From the IMG/VR virus record IMGVR_UViG_2671180637_000005: a stretch of 18,478 bases of DNA. One strand, 5' to 3'. Position numbers and translations under genes: made by a program. This DNA is from a virus (Duplodnaviria > Heunggongvirae > Uroviricota > Caudoviricetes). How positions within the stretch are numbered: the stretch's first letter is position 1; the number at the start of each line of letters is the position of its first letter. Below are positions 457-9,305 of the stretch, piece by piece. The notes beneath the pieces were generated by a model, which saw only the letters and a list, made by a program, of their open reading frames with translations, was not told the DNA's origin and made no database searches.

Positions 457-610
457 AATCAACCGCATGGTGAATCCTCCTTGGAGGGGCTAAATGATCG
501 AGTTTTAAGGGCACGTAGCGAGTTCTGTTTGATCATTGCAGAACTTAGCGGGAGGCGCCATGCGTACATCACTAATGTTATTTCCTTCTATCATTTTCCT
601 TGTGAGTTCT

Positions 611-636
611 GGCTGCGCATGGCGCGGCCTTTTTTT
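611..636 (+). terminator. intrinsic terminator-like hairpin plus T-run
   Basis: GGCTGCGC(611-618) / GCGCGGCC(622-629), 8 bp stem with one G-U pair and a 3-nt loop, then TTTTTTT (630-636). Confidence 0.4.
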
Positions 637-817
637 ATGACCTGCCACTGGCAGATGGTCATCCTGTGATTTGATTCCGGTTCCGGCTTTTTAACTCTGT
701 TCCTGTACACGGGAGAAATTCTATGTCGATTAATCGTTATGATATTGGTTACAAGAAGTACCACGTATTGTGTTGAGATAGAAAGCCTGGTGCCAGAGGT
801 AAATGCAGCAGCATAAT

Positions 818-880
818 AAAAAAGAGCCAGCGCAGAAGAGAACGGGTAAAAGAGTCTGCGCTGGCGTGGGGATATTCCCC
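818..880 (-). terminator. leftward intrinsic terminator-like structure (two adjacent hairpins, U-run on minus strand)
   Basis: 11-bp perfect inverted repeat GCCAGCGCAGA(826-836)/TCTGCGCTGGC(855-865) with 18-nt loop; second hairpin GGGGA-TAT-TCCCC (868-880). A6 run at 818-823 on + strand gives a U-run directly 3' of the stem on the minus-strand RNA. Confidence 0.4.
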
Positions 881-1044
881 GTGGAGAAATGATATGTAAC
901 ACACATCGGGAACCTTTCTATATAAACATTATCATTATTGTCAATCATAACAGTCAGGTATTATGACGTTTATGCATCAGGGCCATCAGGAATTAACTGG
1001 TGGCTTTTTATTGTTGTCAGCTTCCGGATAACGGGAGACGGGGT

Positions 1045-1260
1045 ATGTACCAGATGGAAAAAATAACAACAGGTGTGTCATACACCACGTCAGCGGTGGG
1101 GACGGGATACTGGCTACTGCAGTTGCTGGACAAAGTCTCCCCATCCCAGTGGGTGGCAATAGGCGTATTGGGTAGCCTGGTGTTTGGCTTGCTGACGTAT
1201 CTGACAAACCTTTATTTCAAGATTAAAGAAGATAAGCGTAAGGCTGCGAGAGGTGAATAA
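1045..1260 (+). CDS. pinholin, phage 21 S21-like class II holin with dual-start motif
   Basis: Translation [71 protein letters not shown] closely matches my recollection of S21 (...[15 protein letters not shown]...[20 protein letters not shown]). Two TMDs. Two in-frame ATGs at 1045 and 1054. Stop overlaps endolysin start (TAATG). Confidence 0.85.
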
Positions 1261-2945: not shown

Positions 2946-3341
2946 AGATGTCATTACAAAGCCTATCTACGGGTGGGCTTGATAATGGCTTATACCCTGC
3001 ACGGGATAACTTAACTGATATCCCTTTTAACGGATAAAGGTATTCAGGCCAGACACATCATGCGCTGTATCGTCGCCGTATTCCCGCATTAACCATGACC
3101 GTAGCCCGACGGGGAACTCCTCTGCGTGAGTGTGCGGGAATAATCAAAAACGATGCACACCGGGTTTTTACCGCGTTTATGATTCGTGGGTTTGTCCCTC
3201 ATGCTCGCCAGTCCTGTGCGGGGGTGGAAGAAACAGGACACTTACACAGATTCTTGTGGGCACGATGCTATGCCTTTCTGGATTATCCCGATGCCATTCA
3301 TGCAAGGCGTTGTATCAGACGTTCGTCAGAGTTGTCAGGCT

Positions 3342-3390
3342 GACGGGTCCTCCCGGTGGGGTGGCCTGCCACGGGGCGGGAGCGTCGCGG
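3342..3390. other. cos site: cosQ-like and cosN-like elements of a lambda-type cohesive-end site
   Basis: GACGGGTCCTCCCGGTG (3342-3358) resembles lambda cosQ (ACGGGTCCTTTCCGGTG). ACG|GGGCGGGAGCGTCGCGG (3371-3390) resembles the lambda cosN junction (ACG|GGGCGGCGACCTCGCGG). Lies ~180 bp upstream of the small terminase gene, as in lambda. Lambda sequence is recalled from memory. Confidence 0.5.
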
Positions 3391-3428
3391 AAAAAGGCTA
3401 GTTTTTGAAATTTTATTCGTCATCACCA

Positions 3429-3456
3429 CCACTGTAATTGATTGATATTACAGTGG
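3429..3456. repeat. perfect 10-bp inverted repeat in the cosB-equivalent interval
   Basis: CCACTGTAAT (3429-3438) / ATTACAGTGG (3447-3456) with 8-nt spacer TGATTGAT, followed by TTTTATTTTC. Candidate terminase or host-factor binding site, or a terminator. Confidence 0.4.
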
Positions 3457-3559
3457 TTTTATTTTCATGGTGTCGATTCTGATTGTTTTTTGTTCATCAC
3501 TAACACCGTTTGCCTAAAGTTGTTCGCAAGATGCATGTTTAAAACATTCTGGAGCGGGT

Positions 3560-4054
3560 ATGGATCGAGAGTTAAAAAATCTGACGCTGAATATCAGTCA
3601 ACTGGCGGCATTGTCAGGTGTACATCGCCAGACTGCTGCGGCAAGGCTGCAAAATCTACCCGTTGCAGGGGGGCATGAAAGCAACCTCAAGCTTTATCGG
3701 GTGGTTGATATTGTGTCGGCATTTCTGGCATTACCACCGCCGGTTGCAGAAGGCGAAATGGACGCGCATGAGCGCAAAGCCTGGTATCAGTCTGAACGTG
3801 AGCGTCTTAAGTTCGAACAGGAAACGGCACAACTCATTCCGGCCAGTGATGTCAGACGGGAGTTTGCCATCTGGGCAAAAGCGGTCGTGCAGGTGCTGGA
3901 GACATTACCGGATATTCTTGAACGTGACTGCGGTCTGCAGCCTGCCGCTGTGAGCCGTGTTCAGTCCATTATTGATGATCTGCGCGATCAGATAGCCCTG
4001 CGGGTGACTGAAGCAGGTGCGGATGATGAGGAGGAATTACAGCAGGAGGAGTAA
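3560..4054 (+). CDS. terminase small subunit (Nu1-like, N-terminal HTH DNA-binding)
   Basis: Position immediately downstream of cos and upstream of terL. N-terminal HTH-like segment (LTLNISQLAALSGVHRQTAAARLQN), acidic C-terminus. RBS GGAG upstream. Stop overlaps terL start (TAATG). Confidence 0.75.
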   Translation: MDRELKNLTLNISQLAALSGVHRQTAAARLQNLPVAGGHESNLKLYRVVDIVSAFLALPPPVAEGEMDAHERKAWYQSERERLKFEQETAQLIPASDVRREFAIWAKAVVQVLETLPDILERDCGLQPAAVSRVQSIIDDLRDQIALRVTEAGADDEEELQQEE

Positions 4055-5838
4055 TGCTGAATCAGGAAACCGCAAAGGCAGCACGAACCGATTCAGGTTA
4101 TATCCTTCGCGCACCGAGACGAATGCGGGTTGCTGATGCCGTTGCTCAGTATATGCGGGTGCCTATGGGGGCAGGGAACTCAGTCCCGTGGGATCCGCTG
4201 GTGGCACCGTATGTTATTGAGCCTATGAACTGCCTGGCCTCGCGTGAATACGACGCAGTGATATTTGTTGGCCCGGCACGAACCGGCAAGACTATCGGCC
4301 TGATTGACGGCTGGGTGATTTACAACGTGATTTGCGATCCTGCTGATATGCTGATCATTCAGATGACGGAGGAAAAAGCCCGCGAACACTCCAAAAAACG
4401 ACTCGCCAGAACGTTTCGCGTCAGCCCGGAAGTGGTCAGTCGCCTGAGTCCGAACAAAAATGACAACAACGTTTATGACAGAACATTCCTTGCTGGCAAC
4501 TACCTGAAAATCGGCTGGCCGTCAGTCAATATCATGTCTTCATCAGATTATAAATGCGTGGCGCTGACGGATTATGACCGTTTTCCGGAAGATATTGATG
4601 GTGAGGGGGATGCCTTCTCTCTTGCCTCAAAACGTACCACCACATTTATGTCCAGTGGTATGACGCTGGTGGAGAGTTCCCCCGGCAGGGATGTGAAGGA
4701 TGTGAAATGGCGACGGACTTCACCGCATGAGGCTCCACCAACCACGGGGATCCTGTCGCTCTATAACCGTGGCGATCGCCGTCGCTGGTACTGGCCCTGT
4801 CCACACTGTGGTGAGTATTTTCAGCCCTGCGGCGATGTGGTTGCTGGTTTCCGTGATATTGCCGATCCTGTGCTGGCAAGTGAGGCGGCTTATATTCAGT
4901 GTCCTTCCTGTTCAGGACGGATTTTGCCTGAACAAAAACGCGAGCTGAACGGACGTGGGGTCTGGTTACGGGATGGTGAATCCATCAATGCAGATGGCAG
5001 TCGTTATGGTGATCCCCGGCGTTCACGTATTGCGTCATTCTGGATGGAGGGTCCGGCAGCTGCTTATCAGACACTCTCGCAACTCGTTTACAAACTGCTT
5101 ACTGCAGAACAGGAATACGAGACAACCGGAAGTGAAGAGACACTCAAGACGGTTATCAATACCGACTGGGGATTACCTTATCTTCCCCGCGCCAGCATGG
5201 AGCAACGAAAAAGTGAATTGCTTGAGCAGCGGGCAGAGCCAGTTCCTTCCCGCAGTGTGCCGGATGGCGTTAATTTCCTTGTGGCGACAGTGGATGTGCA
5301 GGCGGGACGTCATCGCCGTTTTGTGGTTCAGGTAACGGGCTATGGCAGCCGTGGCGAACGCTGGATTATTGATCGTTACAACATCACGCAGTCATTGCGC
5401 GGTGACAGCGACGGGGAGAGCCAGCGAATTGATCCGGCCAGCTATCCGGAAGACTGGGATGTCCTGCTGACGGATGTTTTTCATAAAAGCTGGCCGCTGG
5501 CCTCCGATCCTTCTCAACAAATGCGACTGATGGCAATGGCGGTGGACTCCGGCGGTGAAGACGGGGTCACTGATAATGCCTATAAATTCTGGCGTCGTTG
5601 CCGTCGTGATGGCCTTGGTAAACGTATTTACCTGTTTAAGGGCGACAGCATCCGGCGCGCAAAACTGATCACCCGTACATTCCCTGATAACACCGGACGA
5701 ACGGGCCGACGGGCGCAGGCCGCAGGTGATGTGCCGCTCTGGCTTCTTCAGACGGATGCCCTGAAAGATCGGGTGAATAACGCGTTATGGCGTGACTCGC
5801 CAGGTCCCGGCTGGCGAGGTTCTGATGGCAATTCTTGA
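4054..5838 (+). CDS. terminase large subunit (GpA family)
   Basis: 594 aa. Walker A-like GPARTGKT; CPHCGE zinc-ribbon-like motif and VWLRDGE segment shared with lambda gpA (recalled). Followed directly by portal. Confidence 0.9.
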   Translation: MLNQETAKAARTDSGYILRAPRRMRVADAVAQYMRVPMGAGNSVPWDPLVAPYVIEPMNCLASREYDAVIFVGPARTGKTIGLIDGWVIYNVICDPADMLIIQMTEEKAREHSKKRLARTFRVSPEVVSRLSPNKNDNNVYDRTFLAGNYLKIGWPSVNIMSSSDYKCVALTDYDRFPEDIDGEGDAFSLASKRTTTFMSSGMTLVESSPGRDVKDVKWRRTSPHEAPPTTGILSLYNRGDRRRWYWPCPHCGEYFQPCGDVVAGFRDIADPVLASEAAYIQCPSCSGRILPEQKRELNGRGVWLRDGESINADGSRYGDPRRSRIASFWMEGPAAAYQTLSQLVYKLLTAEQEYETTGSEETLKTVINTDWGLPYLPRASMEQRKSELLEQRAEPVPSRSVPDGVNFLVATVDVQAGRHRRFVVQVTGYGSRGERWIIDRYNITQSLRGDSDGESQRIDPASYPEDWDVLLTDVFHKSWPLASDPSQQMRLMAMAVDSGGEDGVTDNAYKFWRRCRRDGLGKRIYLFKGDSIRRAKLITRTFPDNTGRTGRRAQAAGDVPLWLLQTDALKDRVNNALWRDSPGPGWRGSDGNS

Positions 5839-7333
5839 TGATGTGATTGGCGTTTTTTCACCAGGATGGAAAGCGGCAAGGCTGCGTTCCCGTACGGTGA
5901 TCCAGGCTTATGAGGCCGTAAAAACGACGCGGACACACAAAGCCCGGCGGGAAAACCGAACTGCCGACCAGTTAAGCCAGTACGGGGCCGTGTCGTTACG
6001 TGAGCAGGCCCGTTACCTTGATAACAACCACGATCTGGTTATTGGTGTATTTGATAAGCTGGAAGAACGGGTGGTGGGGAAAAACGGGATTATTGTCGAG
6101 CCACATCCGGTATTACGCAATGGGGCCATTGCCCGTGACCTGGCTGCGGAGATTCGCACCCGATGGAGTGAATGGTCTGTCAGCCCGGAAGTCACCGGGC
6201 AGTTTACCCGTCCGATGCTGGAACGTCTGATGCTGCGTACCTGGCTGCGCGATGGTGAGGTGTTTGCCCAGATGGTTTCCGGGCGCATAAACAGCCTGAC
6301 GCCTTCTGCCGGTGTTCATTTCTGGCTGGAGGCGCTCGAGCCGGACTTTATTCCCATGACCAGTGATGAGAGCAACAGGCTGAATCAGGGCGTGTTTGTT
6401 GATGACTGGGGGCGTCCCGAAAAATATCTGGTGTATAAAAGCCGTCCCGTATCCGGACGGCAGATGGAAACCAAAGAAGTGGATGCAGAGCGAATGCTGC
6501 ATCTTAAATTTGTTCGCCGTCTGCACCAGATGCGCGGGACGTCTTTATTGTCCGGTGTGCTGATCCGCCTCAGTGCTCTGAAAGAGTATGAAGATTCTGA
6601 GCTGACTGCAGCAAGGATCGCCGCTGCTCTGGGGATGTACATCCGGAAAGGCGACGGGCAGAGCTATGAAGCGGATGGTAATGGCAGCAAGGATAAGGAA
6701 CGCGAGCTTACCATTCAGCCAGGCATTATTTACGACGATCTGAAACCCGGCGAAGAAATCGGAATGGTGAAGTCGGATCGTCCCAATCCTAACCTTGAAA
6801 CTTTTCGTAATGGTCAGTTGCGTGCCGTGGCGGCGGGCAGTCGTCTGAGTTTTTCCAGTACGGCACGCAACTATAACGGCACTTACAGCGCCCAGCGTCA
6901 GGAGCTGGTTGAATCCACTGATGGCTACCTGATCCTGCAGGACTGGTTTATTGGTGCCGTCACCCGCCCGATGTATCGTGCCTGGCTGAAACTGGCTGTG
7001 GCATCCGGTGTTATCAGGCTACCCCGCGATCTTGATCGTTCTTCACTGTATACCGCGGTGTATTCCGGACCGGTGATGCCGTGGATTGACCCTGTTAAGG
7101 AGGCTGAGGCCTGGAAAATTCAGATTCGTGGTGGAGCGGCGACAGAATCAGACTGGGTACGTGCAGGTGGTCGTAATCCGGATGATGTCAAACGTCGGCG
7201 CAAGGCCGAAATTGATGAAAACCGCAAGCTGGATCTGGTATTTGATACCGATCCGGCCAGTGATAAAGGAGGCAGCAGTGCCGCAACGAAACGACAGGAG
7301 CCGCAGCACACCGACGACCAGTCCGAAGAATAA
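5825..7333 (+). CDS. portal protein (lambda gpB family)
   Basis: ~500 aa ORF between terL and the protease/capsid gene. ORF is open from GTG 5792; ATG 5825 with GAGG 7 nt upstream preferred. Acidic C-terminal tail. Confidence 0.85.
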   Translation: MAILDDVIGVFSPGWKAARLRSRTVIQAYEAVKTTRTHKARRENRTADQLSQYGAVSLREQARYLDNNHDLVIGVFDKLEERVVGKNGIIVEPHPVLRNGAIARDLAAEIRTRWSEWSVSPEVTGQFTRPMLERLMLRTWLRDGEVFAQMVSGRINSLTPSAGVHFWLEALEPDFIPMTSDESNRLNQGVFVDDWGRPEKYLVYKSRPVSGRQMETKEVDAERMLHLKFVRRLHQMRGTSLLSGVLIRLSALKEYEDSELTAARIAAALGMYIRKGDGQSYEADGNGSKDKERELTIQPGIIYDDLKPGEEIGMVKSDRPNPNLETFRNGQLRAVAAGSRLSFSSTARNYNGTYSAQRQELVESTDGYLILQDWFIGAVTRPMYRAWLKLAVASGVIRLPRDLDRSSLYTAVYSGPVMPWIDPVKEAEAWKIQIRGGAATESDWVRAGGRNPDDVKRRRKAEIDENRKLDLVFDTDPASDKGGSSAATKRQEPQHTDDQSEE

Positions 7334-7346
7334 TTCCTGGTTCAGG

Positions 7347-9305
7347 ATGCAGGCAGGTCACCAGAGTGACGCGGATATTTATATTTATGACGAGATTGGT
7401 TTCTGGGGTGTTACAGCGAAGCAGTTTATCAGTGATCTGAATGCACTGGGCGATATCACCCACATTAATCTCCATATTAATTCACCGGGTGGCGATGTCT
7501 TTGAAGGCATCGCCATTTTTAATGCACTGAAAACACATGGTGCGTCCATTACCGTTTATGTCGACGGTGTGGCGGCGTCAATGGCGTCGGTCATTGCGAT
7601 GGTGGGAAGCCCGGTCATTATGCCGGAAAACTCCTTCATGATGATTCATAAACCATTTGGCTTTACGGGCGGTGATGCGGAGGACATGCGCACCTATGCC
7701 GACCTGCTCGATAAAGTTGAGGCGGTTCTGTTACCCGCTTATGCACAGAAAACCGGGAAAACCACCGATGAAATTGCTGCCATGCTGGCGGATGAGACCT
7801 GGATGTCCGGTGCCGAATGTCTGGCACATGGATTTGCTGATCAGGTGACGCCAGCCGTTAAGGCAATGGCATGTATTCAGTCAAAACGTACAGAGGAATT
7901 TAAAAAGATGCCGGAATCCATTCGAAACATGATTACTCCGCCACGCAACAGTGCTCCACGCGTACAGGATAATGAACCTGCAGCTTCCCGGACGCCAGTG
8001 CAGGCAGCAGCACCCGTGGTGGATGAAAACAGTATCCGTGCGCAGGTACTGGCAGAGCAAAAAGCGCGTGTAAATGGTATTAATGATCTGTTTGCCATGT
8101 TTGGCGGGCGTTATCAGATGCTGCAGGCTCAGTGTCTTGCCGATCCTGAATGTTCGCTGGAGCAGGCCCGCGAAAAGCTGTTGAACGAGATGGGGCGCGA
8201 GTCCACGCCATCCAATAAAAATACCCCGGCTCATATTTATGCCGGTAACGGTAATTTTGTGGGGGACGGGATCCGCCAGGCGCTGATGGCGCGTGCCGGA
8301 TTTGAAAAAACCGAACGTGATAATGTCTACAACGGGATGACCCTGCGTGAATATGCCCGTATGTCACTGACTGAACGGGGTATTGGGGTTTCCGGTTATA
8401 ACCCGATGCAGATGGTCGGTGCGGCGTTCACACACAGTACGTCTGACTTCGGTAATATTCTGTTGGATGTTGCGAACAAAGCCATTCTGCAGGGCTGGGA
8501 AGATGCCCCTGAAACCTATGAACAGTGGACGCGGAAAGGTCAGTTGTCTGATTTTAAAATTGCCCATCGTGTGGGTATGGGGGGCTTCAGTGCTCTGCGT
8601 CAGGTGCGTGAAGGGGCGGAATATAAATACGTCACCACCGGAGATAAACAGGCCACTATTGCACTGGCGACCTATGGCGAGCTGTTCAGTATCACCCGTC
8701 AGGCCATTATCAATGATGATCTGAATATGCTGACCGATGTCCCGATGAAACTGGGCCGTGCGGCGAAATCCACTATTGCCGATCTGGTTTATGCCATTCT
8801 GACGTCTAACCCGAAAATCTCCACAGATAATGTAAGTCTGTTCGATAAAGCGAAACATGCAAACGTACTGGAGAGCGCTGCAATGGACGTGGCATCGCTG
8901 GATAAAGCCCGCCAGTTGATGCGCGTTCAGAAAGAGGGGGAGCGTCATCTGAATATTCGTCCTGCGTTCGTACTGGTACCGACGGCGATGGAGTCTGTTG
9001 CTAACCAGGTCATTCGCTCCTCAAGTGTCAAGGGGGCTGACATTAACGCCGGTATTATTAACCCGGTGAAAGATTTTGCGACCGTTATTGCAGAGCCTCG
9101 TCTTGATGATAACAGCCAGACCACCTTCTACCTGGCTGCGTCAAAAGGCTCCGATACGATTGAAGTGGCTTATCTCAACGGTGTGGATACGCCATATATT
9201 GATCAGATGGAGGGCTTCAGTGTGGATGGCGTGACAACGAAAGTGCGTATTGACGCCGGTGTCGCGCCAGTTGATCACCGCGGTCTGGTGAAATGTACGG
9301 CGTAA
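7347..9305 (+). CDS. prohead protease (ClpP/S14-like) fused to scaffold-like linker and HK97-fold major capsid protein
   Basis: N-terminal ClpP-like domain (INSPGGDVFEGIAIFNALK...GVAASMASVIAMVG...MIHKP), ~150-aa linker, C-terminal ~350 aa capsid-like domain. Frame is open from 7086, overlapping the portal; ATG 7347 just after the portal stop is chosen, with weak RBS, so the start is uncertain. Confidence 0.8.
   Translation: MQAGHQSDADIYIYDEIGFWGVTAKQFISDLNALGDITHINLHINSPGGDVFEGIAIFNALKTHGASITVYVDGVAASMASVIAMVGSPVIMPENSFMMIHKPFGFTGGDAEDMRTYADLLDKVEAVLLPAYAQKTGKTTDEIAAMLADETWMSGAECLAHGFADQVTPAVKAMACIQSKRTEEFKKMPESIRNMITPPRNSAPRVQDNEPAASRTPVQAAAPVVDENSIRAQVLAEQKARVNGINDLFAMFGGRYQMLQAQCLADPECSLEQAREKLLNEMGRESTPSNKNTPAHIYAGNGNFVGDGIRQALMARAGFEKTERDNVYNGMTLREYARMSLTERGIGVSGYNPMQMVGAAFTHSTSDFGNILLDVANKAILQGWEDAPETYEQWTRKGQLSDFKIAHRVGMGGFSALRQVREGAEYKYVTTGDKQATIALATYGELFSITRQAIINDDLNMLTDVPMKLGRAAKSTIADLVYAILTSNPKISTDNVSLFDKAKHANVLESAAMDVASLDKARQLMRVQKEGERHLNIRPAFVLVPTAMESVANQVIRSSSVKGADINAGIINPVKDFATVIAEPRLDDNSQTTFYLAASKGSDTIEVAYLNGVDTPYIDQMEGFSVDGVTTKVRIDAGVAPVDHRGLVKCTA

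Follow-up and report, generated by a model that had tools for sequence, protein, structure and literature searches.

The window (the whole stretch of 18,478 nucleotides analyzed here) is 99.8-99.9% identical to the lambdoid prophage PP4 of EPEC E2348/69, and the segment of interest is identical in prophage Sp3 of O157:H7 Sakai. The genes follow one another as Q, a membrane protein inside which the window starts, DUF3927/TciB (266-424), a 620-bp gap, a class II holin, a SAR endolysin and Rz. The 620-bp stretch lacks real genes. It holds the small RNA PasD1, a remnant of nanS-p and, on the opposite strand, the small RNA gene described below, which we identify as EcOnc32 (Table 1). A scan for tRNAs found none in the window. 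Downstream of the lysis cassette the window may diverge from E2348/69 PP4; the ORFs at 4054-5838, 5792-7333 and 7086-9305 (together spanning 4054-9305, plus strand) are unlike the terminase-large/portal layout of that prophage.

Table 1. Features of the interval between DUF3927/TciB and the holin (positions in the window).
Feature	Position	Strand	Basis or remark
PasD1 (EcOnc13; STnc100-like), convergent small RNA	465-637	+	Table S6 coordinates 1060260-1060432
nanS-p (SASA carbohydrate esterase) remnant	723-817	+	Start and last codons only; internal deletion
Small RNA gene (EcOnc32; Esr41-like)	818-907	-	Minimal form, ~90 nt; 3′ end from RIL-seq
U6 tail of intrinsic terminator	818-823	-	Sequence; longest U tract in RIL-seq is 6
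Terminator hairpin	826-865	-	11-bp perfect stem, 18-nt loop (CUCUUUUACCCGUUCUCU); folds and RNAalifold
Second hairpin, GGGGA-AUA-UCCCC	868-880	-	Sequence, MFE fold and RNAalifold; Esr41 counterpart GGGGUAUUCCC
Seed region, ACAUAUCAUUUCUCCAC	881-897	-	Core UCUCCAC is an anti-Shine-Dalgarno
5′ hairpin, GAUGUGU-GUU-ACAUAUC, 7 bp	891-907	-	MFE fold and, independently, RNAalifold
Predicted 5′ end of small RNA	907	-	By homology to the +1 G of Esr41
Putative P1 -10, TATAGA	917-922	-	16-nt spacer; read from sequence
Alternative promoter P2	928-957	-	CTGACT (957-952), 18-nt spacer, GATAAT (933-928); promoter scan, 9/12 matches
P1 -35, TTGACA	939-944	-	Conserved, with equal spacing to the RNA start, in classes A, B and C and in Esr41
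Class II holin, first lysis gene	1045-1260	+	EcOnc32 gene lies ~140 nt upstream on the opposite strand

PasD1 has a full-length match to the Rfam STnc100 model (40.2 bits, under the gathering score of 47) and its own terminator, found by the terminator scan at 611-629 and followed by T7. The PasD probe, in reverse complement, matches from position 598 onward. EcOnc13 was named a PasD homologue by the EPEC authors, and in Sp3 it is the convergent partner of EcOnc32. The nanS-p remnant can be placed by comparison with related prophages. Homology to phage 434 stops at position 747, within the beginning of the esterase gene, and the flank ATTATGCTGC...CATTTA recurs at the 3′ ends of the esterase genes of E2348/69 PP2 and PP5. 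PP2, PP5 and phage 434 keep the full 1.85-kb nanS-p between PasD and a leftward small RNA. The EcOnc32 terminator abuts the 3′ end of the remnant, as the corresponding terminators do in the PasA and PasC loci. On the other side, just upstream of the holin, a terminator-like hairpin and T-run lie on the plus strand at 979-1007; the equivalent in phage 434 is annotated as a terminator, and homology to Stx phages resumes at ~977.

The initial annotation, made from the letters alone, had proposed a leftward small RNA that ends in two hairpins and a U-run. The elements on which it relied are as described. The arms at 826-836 (GCCAGCGCAGA) and 855-865 are 11 nt long and 100% complementary across an 18-nt loop, the GGGGA-TAT-TCCCC hairpin and the A6 run are read directly from the sequence, and on the minus strand the latter gives ...GCUGGC-UCUUUUUU after the stem-loop. 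The 18.5-kb window has two perfect inverted repeats with arms of 11 bp or more and a loop of 3-30 nt, while dinucleotide shuffles hold a mean of 0.155 and any at all in 18 of 200 shuffles. The sole other such repeat lies at 3428-3457 on the plus strand (CCACTGTAATT / AATTACAGTGG, then TTTTATTTT) and resembles a plus-strand terminator; the surrounding 2946-3560 has only short unannotated ORFs, ahead of DUF1441/terminase. The minus strand of 812-950 folds at -40.0 kcal/mol, versus -24.5 ± 3.2 for shuffles (z = -4.9; none of 200 as good). The plus-strand fold is weaker (z = -3.1), and the stem there has no U-run 3′ of it. A simple terminator scan did not pick up the 826-865 hairpin because its loop limit was 8 nt.

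The small RNA is already known. Positions 800-960 are 100% identical to NC_002695.2 901562-901722 in Sakai Sp3, where Table S2 of Tree et al. (2014, Mol Cell, PMC4104026) places EcOnc32 on the minus strand and gives it an Hfq-CRAC peak at 901574-901662. Those peak coordinates possibly derive from version.1 of the record, though the coordinates of ECs_0817 agree with the version used here. The same source flags a Rho-independent terminator, passes EcOnc32 in 5 datasets and gives a Northern band of ~112 nt. The published Northern probe (ATATTCCCCGTGGAGAAATGATATGTAACACACAT) corresponds to 872-906 of the plus strand, so it detects a minus-strand RNA. Sequence, strand and slot (between EcOnc13/PasD and the holin) are thus the same in Sakai Sp3 and in the window, with no sequence difference. 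Within the literature searched, EcOnc32 appears in supplementary tables only, with no mention found in a main text, and its function, family and exact ends are, as far as searched, unpublished. HnrS (EcOnc10-12) was considered as an identity and rejected, as it is a 66-nt RNA present in multiple copies in Sp9, Sp10 and Sp12.

In EPEC E2348/69 the locus was counted under the CDS name E2348C_1013 (PMC8550237). In the RIL-seq data of that study all chimeric fragments of E2348C_1013 (100%) have it in the RNA2 position; its U tract is 6 long and its partners number 8. Its RNA2 fragments start at NC_011601 1060613, which is position 818 of the window and the exact end of the U-run; the Table S3 rows that we consulted for E2348C_1013 correspond to 818-877 on the minus strand. 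A leftward transcript ending near 818-826, which the initial annotation had said should be sought in strand-specific data, is therefore present, and its main proposal of a leftward, terminator-ended small RNA is upheld by the CRAC peak and Northern of EcOnc32 together with the EPEC 3′ end. The U6 tail is likely the Hfq-binding 3′ end. In the part of the RNA-seq table consulted, E2348C_1013 has a base mean of 2064 and a log2 fold change of -2.91 (padj 1.4e-23), a change of ~8-fold. We take the contrast to be hfq mutant against wild type, since the Hfq-dependent mgrR (-3.04), pasB (-6.79) and sdhX are also negative in these rows. PasA behaves like E2348C_1013 (-2.78), and the adjacent holin has a base mean of 5. 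On this reading of the consulted rows, the level of EcOnc32 depends on Hfq. E2348C_1013 fails one of the four EPEC criteria for a small RNA, with 4 of 8 partners in the CDS/5′UTR category and thus under the 67% rule, which is likely why the authors did not name it as one. Taken together, the minus-strand small RNA at 818-907 is real; it is EcOnc32, already known and functionally uncharacterised.

Two promoters could produce this RNA. A minus-strand TTGACA is present as the initial annotation had it, two bases away from where it was placed (944-939, not 941-946), and TATAGA, the putative -10 of P1, is at 922-917. This -10 reads TATAAA in Stx2g-type variants. P1 predicts a start near 911-907 and an RNA of 90-94 nt. 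P2 predicts a start near 921-923 and an RNA of ~104 nt; its -10 is TATAAT in class C (variant classes are described below) and is lost in class B and in Esr41. The observed Northern band of ~112 nt exceeds the predicted 90-104 nt, with the P2 size closer to the band than the P1 size.

No Rfam family matches the window at gathering thresholds. A permissive scan returned Esr41 (RF02676) at 905-816 of the minus strand over the full model (1-74) with 32.3 bits (E 1e-4 to 3.6e-4), which falls below the Rfam gathering score of 102. The alignment takes in the seed, the second hairpin and the terminator, and a covariance-model search of the kind suggested in the initial annotation, which could assign the RNA to no named family, does name a relative, through a full-length match below threshold. 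MFE folds of classes A, B and C and of Esr41, the RNAalifold consensus and the cmscan alignment all give the Esr41 architecture. Our own covariance model (R1) matches the window at 907-815 with 113 bits and Esr41 with 46 bits; R1 was built from eight sequences including Esr41, so the latter score is no independent test. Judged by sequence and predicted fold, EcOnc32 is a divergent relative of Esr41.

The likeness to Esr41 (EcOnc14; EHEC SpLE1) extends over the whole RNA. Both have a TTGACA at the same distance from the RNA start, begin with GAUG and are Hfq-bound. Both have a 5′ hairpin, a single-stranded anti-Shine-Dalgarno seed (UUUCUCCA), a GGGG..CCC hairpin, a GCC(A/G)GC terminator and a U-run. 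In EcOnc32 positions 881-890 of the seed region are single-stranded, and the remainder overlaps the 3′ arm of the 5′ hairpin. Both are also related to iron: Esr41 represses cirA, chuA and bfr, and EcOnc32 is linked to entC (see below). The two differ in the terminator loop, which is 18 nt in EcOnc32 and ~7 nt in Esr41, in the top of the 5′ hairpin, and in the seed flank, where EcOnc32 alone has the AUAUCAU that pairs with the start codon of entC (duplex of -27.6 versus -17.0 kcal/mol for Esr41). They also differ in context, as Esr41 lies downstream of iha in SpLE1 (O-island 43/48) and EcOnc32 in a lambdoid late region. A 2026 preprint reports that Esr41 matches are frequent near PasD and has nothing further on EcOnc32.

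PasA and PasC (E2348/69 PP2 and PP5; Pearl Mizrahi 2021; Zhu 2026 preprint) occupy the same leftward slot, between the nanS-p 3′ end and the holin, and are Hfq-dependent. In the window the slot runs from the esterase remnant at 723-817 to the holin at 1045. They share with EcOnc32 a terminator module (GCCAGCG...CGCTGGC-U7) and the downstream flank ATTATGCTGC, but their bodies and seeds seem not to align with it. R1 gives 16.9-18.1 bits (E 0.04-0.09) on PasC and on a unit downstream of PasA, in the terminator module only, and 9.3 bits on PasA itself; by these scores, membership of PasA/PasC is unsupported beyond the shared terminator module. The unit downstream of PasA in E2348/69 PP2 (L004, 2365-2450, minus strand; the same in phage 434, L003, 5173-5258) has a second promoter-like TTGACA and a second terminator. 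In terminator and flank it agrees with PasC and EcOnc32, and it corresponds to the 3′ end of the 'minor 236-nt' form of PasA, which suggests tandem small RNA cassettes with one common terminator module. The anti-sRNAs AgvB and AsxR (Tree et al., 2014) are Hfq-bound like EcOnc32 and, again like it, encoded at the moron site that follows PR′, facing a moron or stx gene. Unlike EcOnc32 they are 51-60 nt long with a common 42-nt 3′ region, and Rfam matches to AgvB or AsxR were absent from the window even at E up to 10. EcOnc32 is thus best described as a divergent Esr41-family small RNA in the PasA/PasC slot.

The 161-nt region is present in 603 of 5426 complete E. coli genomes, at an identity of at least 99% in 564. 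From IMG/VR prophage contigs and E. coli genomes we distinguished the window type (class A), the type of Stx2g and Stx2 phages (classes B and B2), class C, the copy of an Stx2i phage (class D) and Esr41 (class E). Variants are convergent with stx2B in Stx2g, Stx2 and Stx2i prophages (L007, 1552-1646; L008, 1552-1645; L009, 1486-1575). Classes A, B, C and E each fold alone into the same three hairpins, and RNAalifold recovers the same helices. The 5′ part of class D is unrelated and its fold is not that of the other classes; the Stx2i copy may be a decayed one. Across 8 distinct sequences 90.1% of cells pair, versus 30-57% with the partners slid. The family is too shallow for covariation to speak clearly for or against the structure, with one pair showing a double change and 50 of 500 shuffles reaching the observed percentage paired; in the class C stem (GCCAGCGTA/TACGCTGGC), compared by hand, a C-G pair of the terminator is replaced by U-A. 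In a pattern scan of one genome per species, plausible matches occurred only in E. coli and Shigella flexneri, both of the Esr41 type. Other matches, scattered over unrelated phyla, were taken as chance, so that at this stringency there was no evidence outside Escherichia/Shigella.

The RNA partners of EcOnc32 point to entC, which opens the enterobactin (iron-scavenging) operon. In the rows of the EPEC RIL-seq table consulted, the entC 5′UTR forms 263 chimeras with E2348C_1013 (odds ratio 14, p = 4e-165), making up 39% of all entC 5′UTR chimeras and placing entC as the top specific partner. Our reading of the columns reproduces the tabulated odds ratio (263 x 17,417,128 / (405 x 808,038) = 14.0). 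An independent chimera from EHEC RNase E-CLASH joins the entC 5′UTR to EcOnc32. Its mRNA half begins at the Fur box, takes in the Shine-Dalgarno, ends at ATGGAT and is identical to the E2348/69 entC leader; its sRNA half is ACATATCATTTCTCCACGGGGAAT, starting at ACAUAUCAUUUCUCCACGGGGAAU. A physical link between EcOnc32 and the entC 5′UTR is thus shown in two data sets.

The sequence of the seed fits this link. The seed 5′-AUAUCAUUUCUCCAC-3′ pairs with entC 5′-GUGGAGGAUGAUAU-3′ (target listed as GUGGAGGAUGAUAUG) in a duplex of 14 bp that spans the GGAGG Shine-Dalgarno and the AUG. As a windowed seed duplex it has -22.0 kcal/mol, versus -8.9 ± 2.4 for shuffled targets (none of 200 as good). Windowed seed duplexes replaced RNAduplex runs of the whole RNA against 100-nt targets, which were uninformative (huge internal loops, with shuffles equal). 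The entC pairing is about -27 kcal/mol in variant classes A, B and C and weaker for Esr41 (-17). The dnaK 5′UTR has the same GUGGAGA core, with 5 of 200 shuffles as good. We did not find significant complementarity between the seed and either the rpoS leader or the nleB-region IGR (windowed duplexes versus shuffles). In the consulted rows the odds ratios of these two partners are low (2.8-6.0), and they may be Hfq-proximity background. The 18-nt terminator loop was tried as a second seed for the same two partners and rejected, its complementarity to the rpoS leader and the nleB region not being significant (35 and 20 of 200 shuffles as good, respectively). The Esr41 targets fliC, LEE, cirA, chuA and bfr are absent among the four of eight EPEC partner rows that were consulted. 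From the duplex over the Shine-Dalgarno and AUG of entC, together with the chimeras, we infer that EcOnc32 represses translation of entCEBAH.

We therefore propose the following. EcOnc32 is encoded on the minus strand at 818-907, possibly to ~921, in the late region of lambdoid prophages such as Sakai Sp3 and E2348/69 PP4. Its leftward transcription during lysogeny would start from its own sigma-70 promoter and stop at the intrinsic terminator, whose U-tail and hairpin would load it onto Hfq. Built like its relative Esr41, with three predicted hairpins and an anti-Shine-Dalgarno seed (AUUUCUCCAC) that is single-stranded, it would pair across the Shine-Dalgarno and start codon of entC and so block translation of entCEBAH for enterobactin synthesis. 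We consider this explanation as a whole, a trans-acting, Hfq-dependent RNA with its own promoter, the Esr41 layout and entC pairing, to be very probably right.

An alternative is that EcOnc32 acts mainly in cis, modulating late and lysis gene expression through antisense pairing, RNase III cleavage or transcriptional interference. The initial annotation had called the RNA antisense to the late-gene leader, and as a matter of geometry it is, its gene lying opposite the late genes in the interval from Q/PR′ to the holin. With Q upstream and the holin downstream the position suits such a role, the RNA has complementarity to the Q-antiterminated late transcript at a point ~140 nt before the holin, and its gene converges on PasD1. 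In many Sp prophages, according to Tree et al., this moron site carries sRNAs in convergent pairs, and the position opposite stx2B recurs in Stx2g, Stx2i and Stx2 phages. However, in the RNA-seq rows consulted EcOnc32 is abundant in uninduced lysogens while the holin is silent (base mean 5), the chimeras found in the consulted tables involve trans-encoded host RNAs, and Esr41 has the same architecture outside a late operon, next to iha in SpLE1. We regard a main role in cis as unlikely; a cis role is compatible with the trans-acting one, and the two are not exclusive.

It seems more doubtful still that EcOnc32 is mainly an Hfq competitor or sponge and not a regulator of specific mRNAs. Its abundance on Hfq speaks for such a reading. 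In the part of the RIL-seq tables consulted, ~808,000 of ~18.2 million chimeric fragments (~4%) have E2348C_1013 as RNA2, far above PasC (47,000) and PasD1 (24,000), and just 8 partners are significant. In EHEC its CRAC AUC of 64.7 million is close to the 77.8 million of EcOnc01a, an orphan Hfq site and the first row of the table (PMC4104026). However, high abundance by itself depresses odds ratios and masks real targets, and the entC chimeras are highly specific, with the share of entC 5′UTR chimeras given above for the consulted rows and a 14-bp duplex at the ribosome-binding site.

Least probable of all, and hard to reconcile with the data, is that the region is the 5′ part of an mRNA, either for ECs_0817 / E2348C_1013 (505-903, minus strand, 399 nt), which RefSeq annotates as a 132-aa hypothetical protein in E2348/69 and Sakai and under whose name the EPEC study counted reads, or for the 730-948 ORF: the intrinsic terminator and the RNA 3′ end (818) lie ~85 nt into the annotated ORF, which continues antisense through PasD1, is shortened to 103 aa by an indel in the window and has no Pfam family at cut-off, and the 5′-proximal ATG frame varies between classes (GATGTG in class A, GATATG in classes B and C). 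The 730-948 ORF, whose translation the initial annotation had named as evidence against a small RNA, begins at 948, before either candidate transcription start, and extends beyond the terminator; therefore the small RNA transcript cannot express it. The RefSeq CDS ECs_0817 / E2348C_RS28255 (505-903, minus strand; here 591-902) overlaps two experimentally detected small RNAs, one of them in sense and the other in antisense, and is almost certainly a spurious call behind which EcOnc32 disappears in expression tables.

In two major pathotypes, EHEC and EPEC, few unannotated transcripts are as heavily bound to Hfq as EcOnc32, which is still annotated as a hypothetical protein. Its relation to PasA, PasC and Esr41 suggests that the slot upstream of the holin holds interchangeable small RNA cassettes with a common terminator module. 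More tentatively, in a picture that we find almost as easy to believe as to doubt, prophages, including Stx2 variants, may use an Esr41 paralogue to occlude the entC ribosome-binding site and shut down enterobactin synthesis, with a shift in Hfq availability owing to its abundance on Hfq, possibly a second target site in the 18-nt loop and possibly a cis-antisense effect on the late holin/Stx transcript. A prophage small RNA that would restrain siderophore synthesis is a concrete hypothesis, drawn from the kinship with Esr41, two interactomes and the 14-bp entC duplex.
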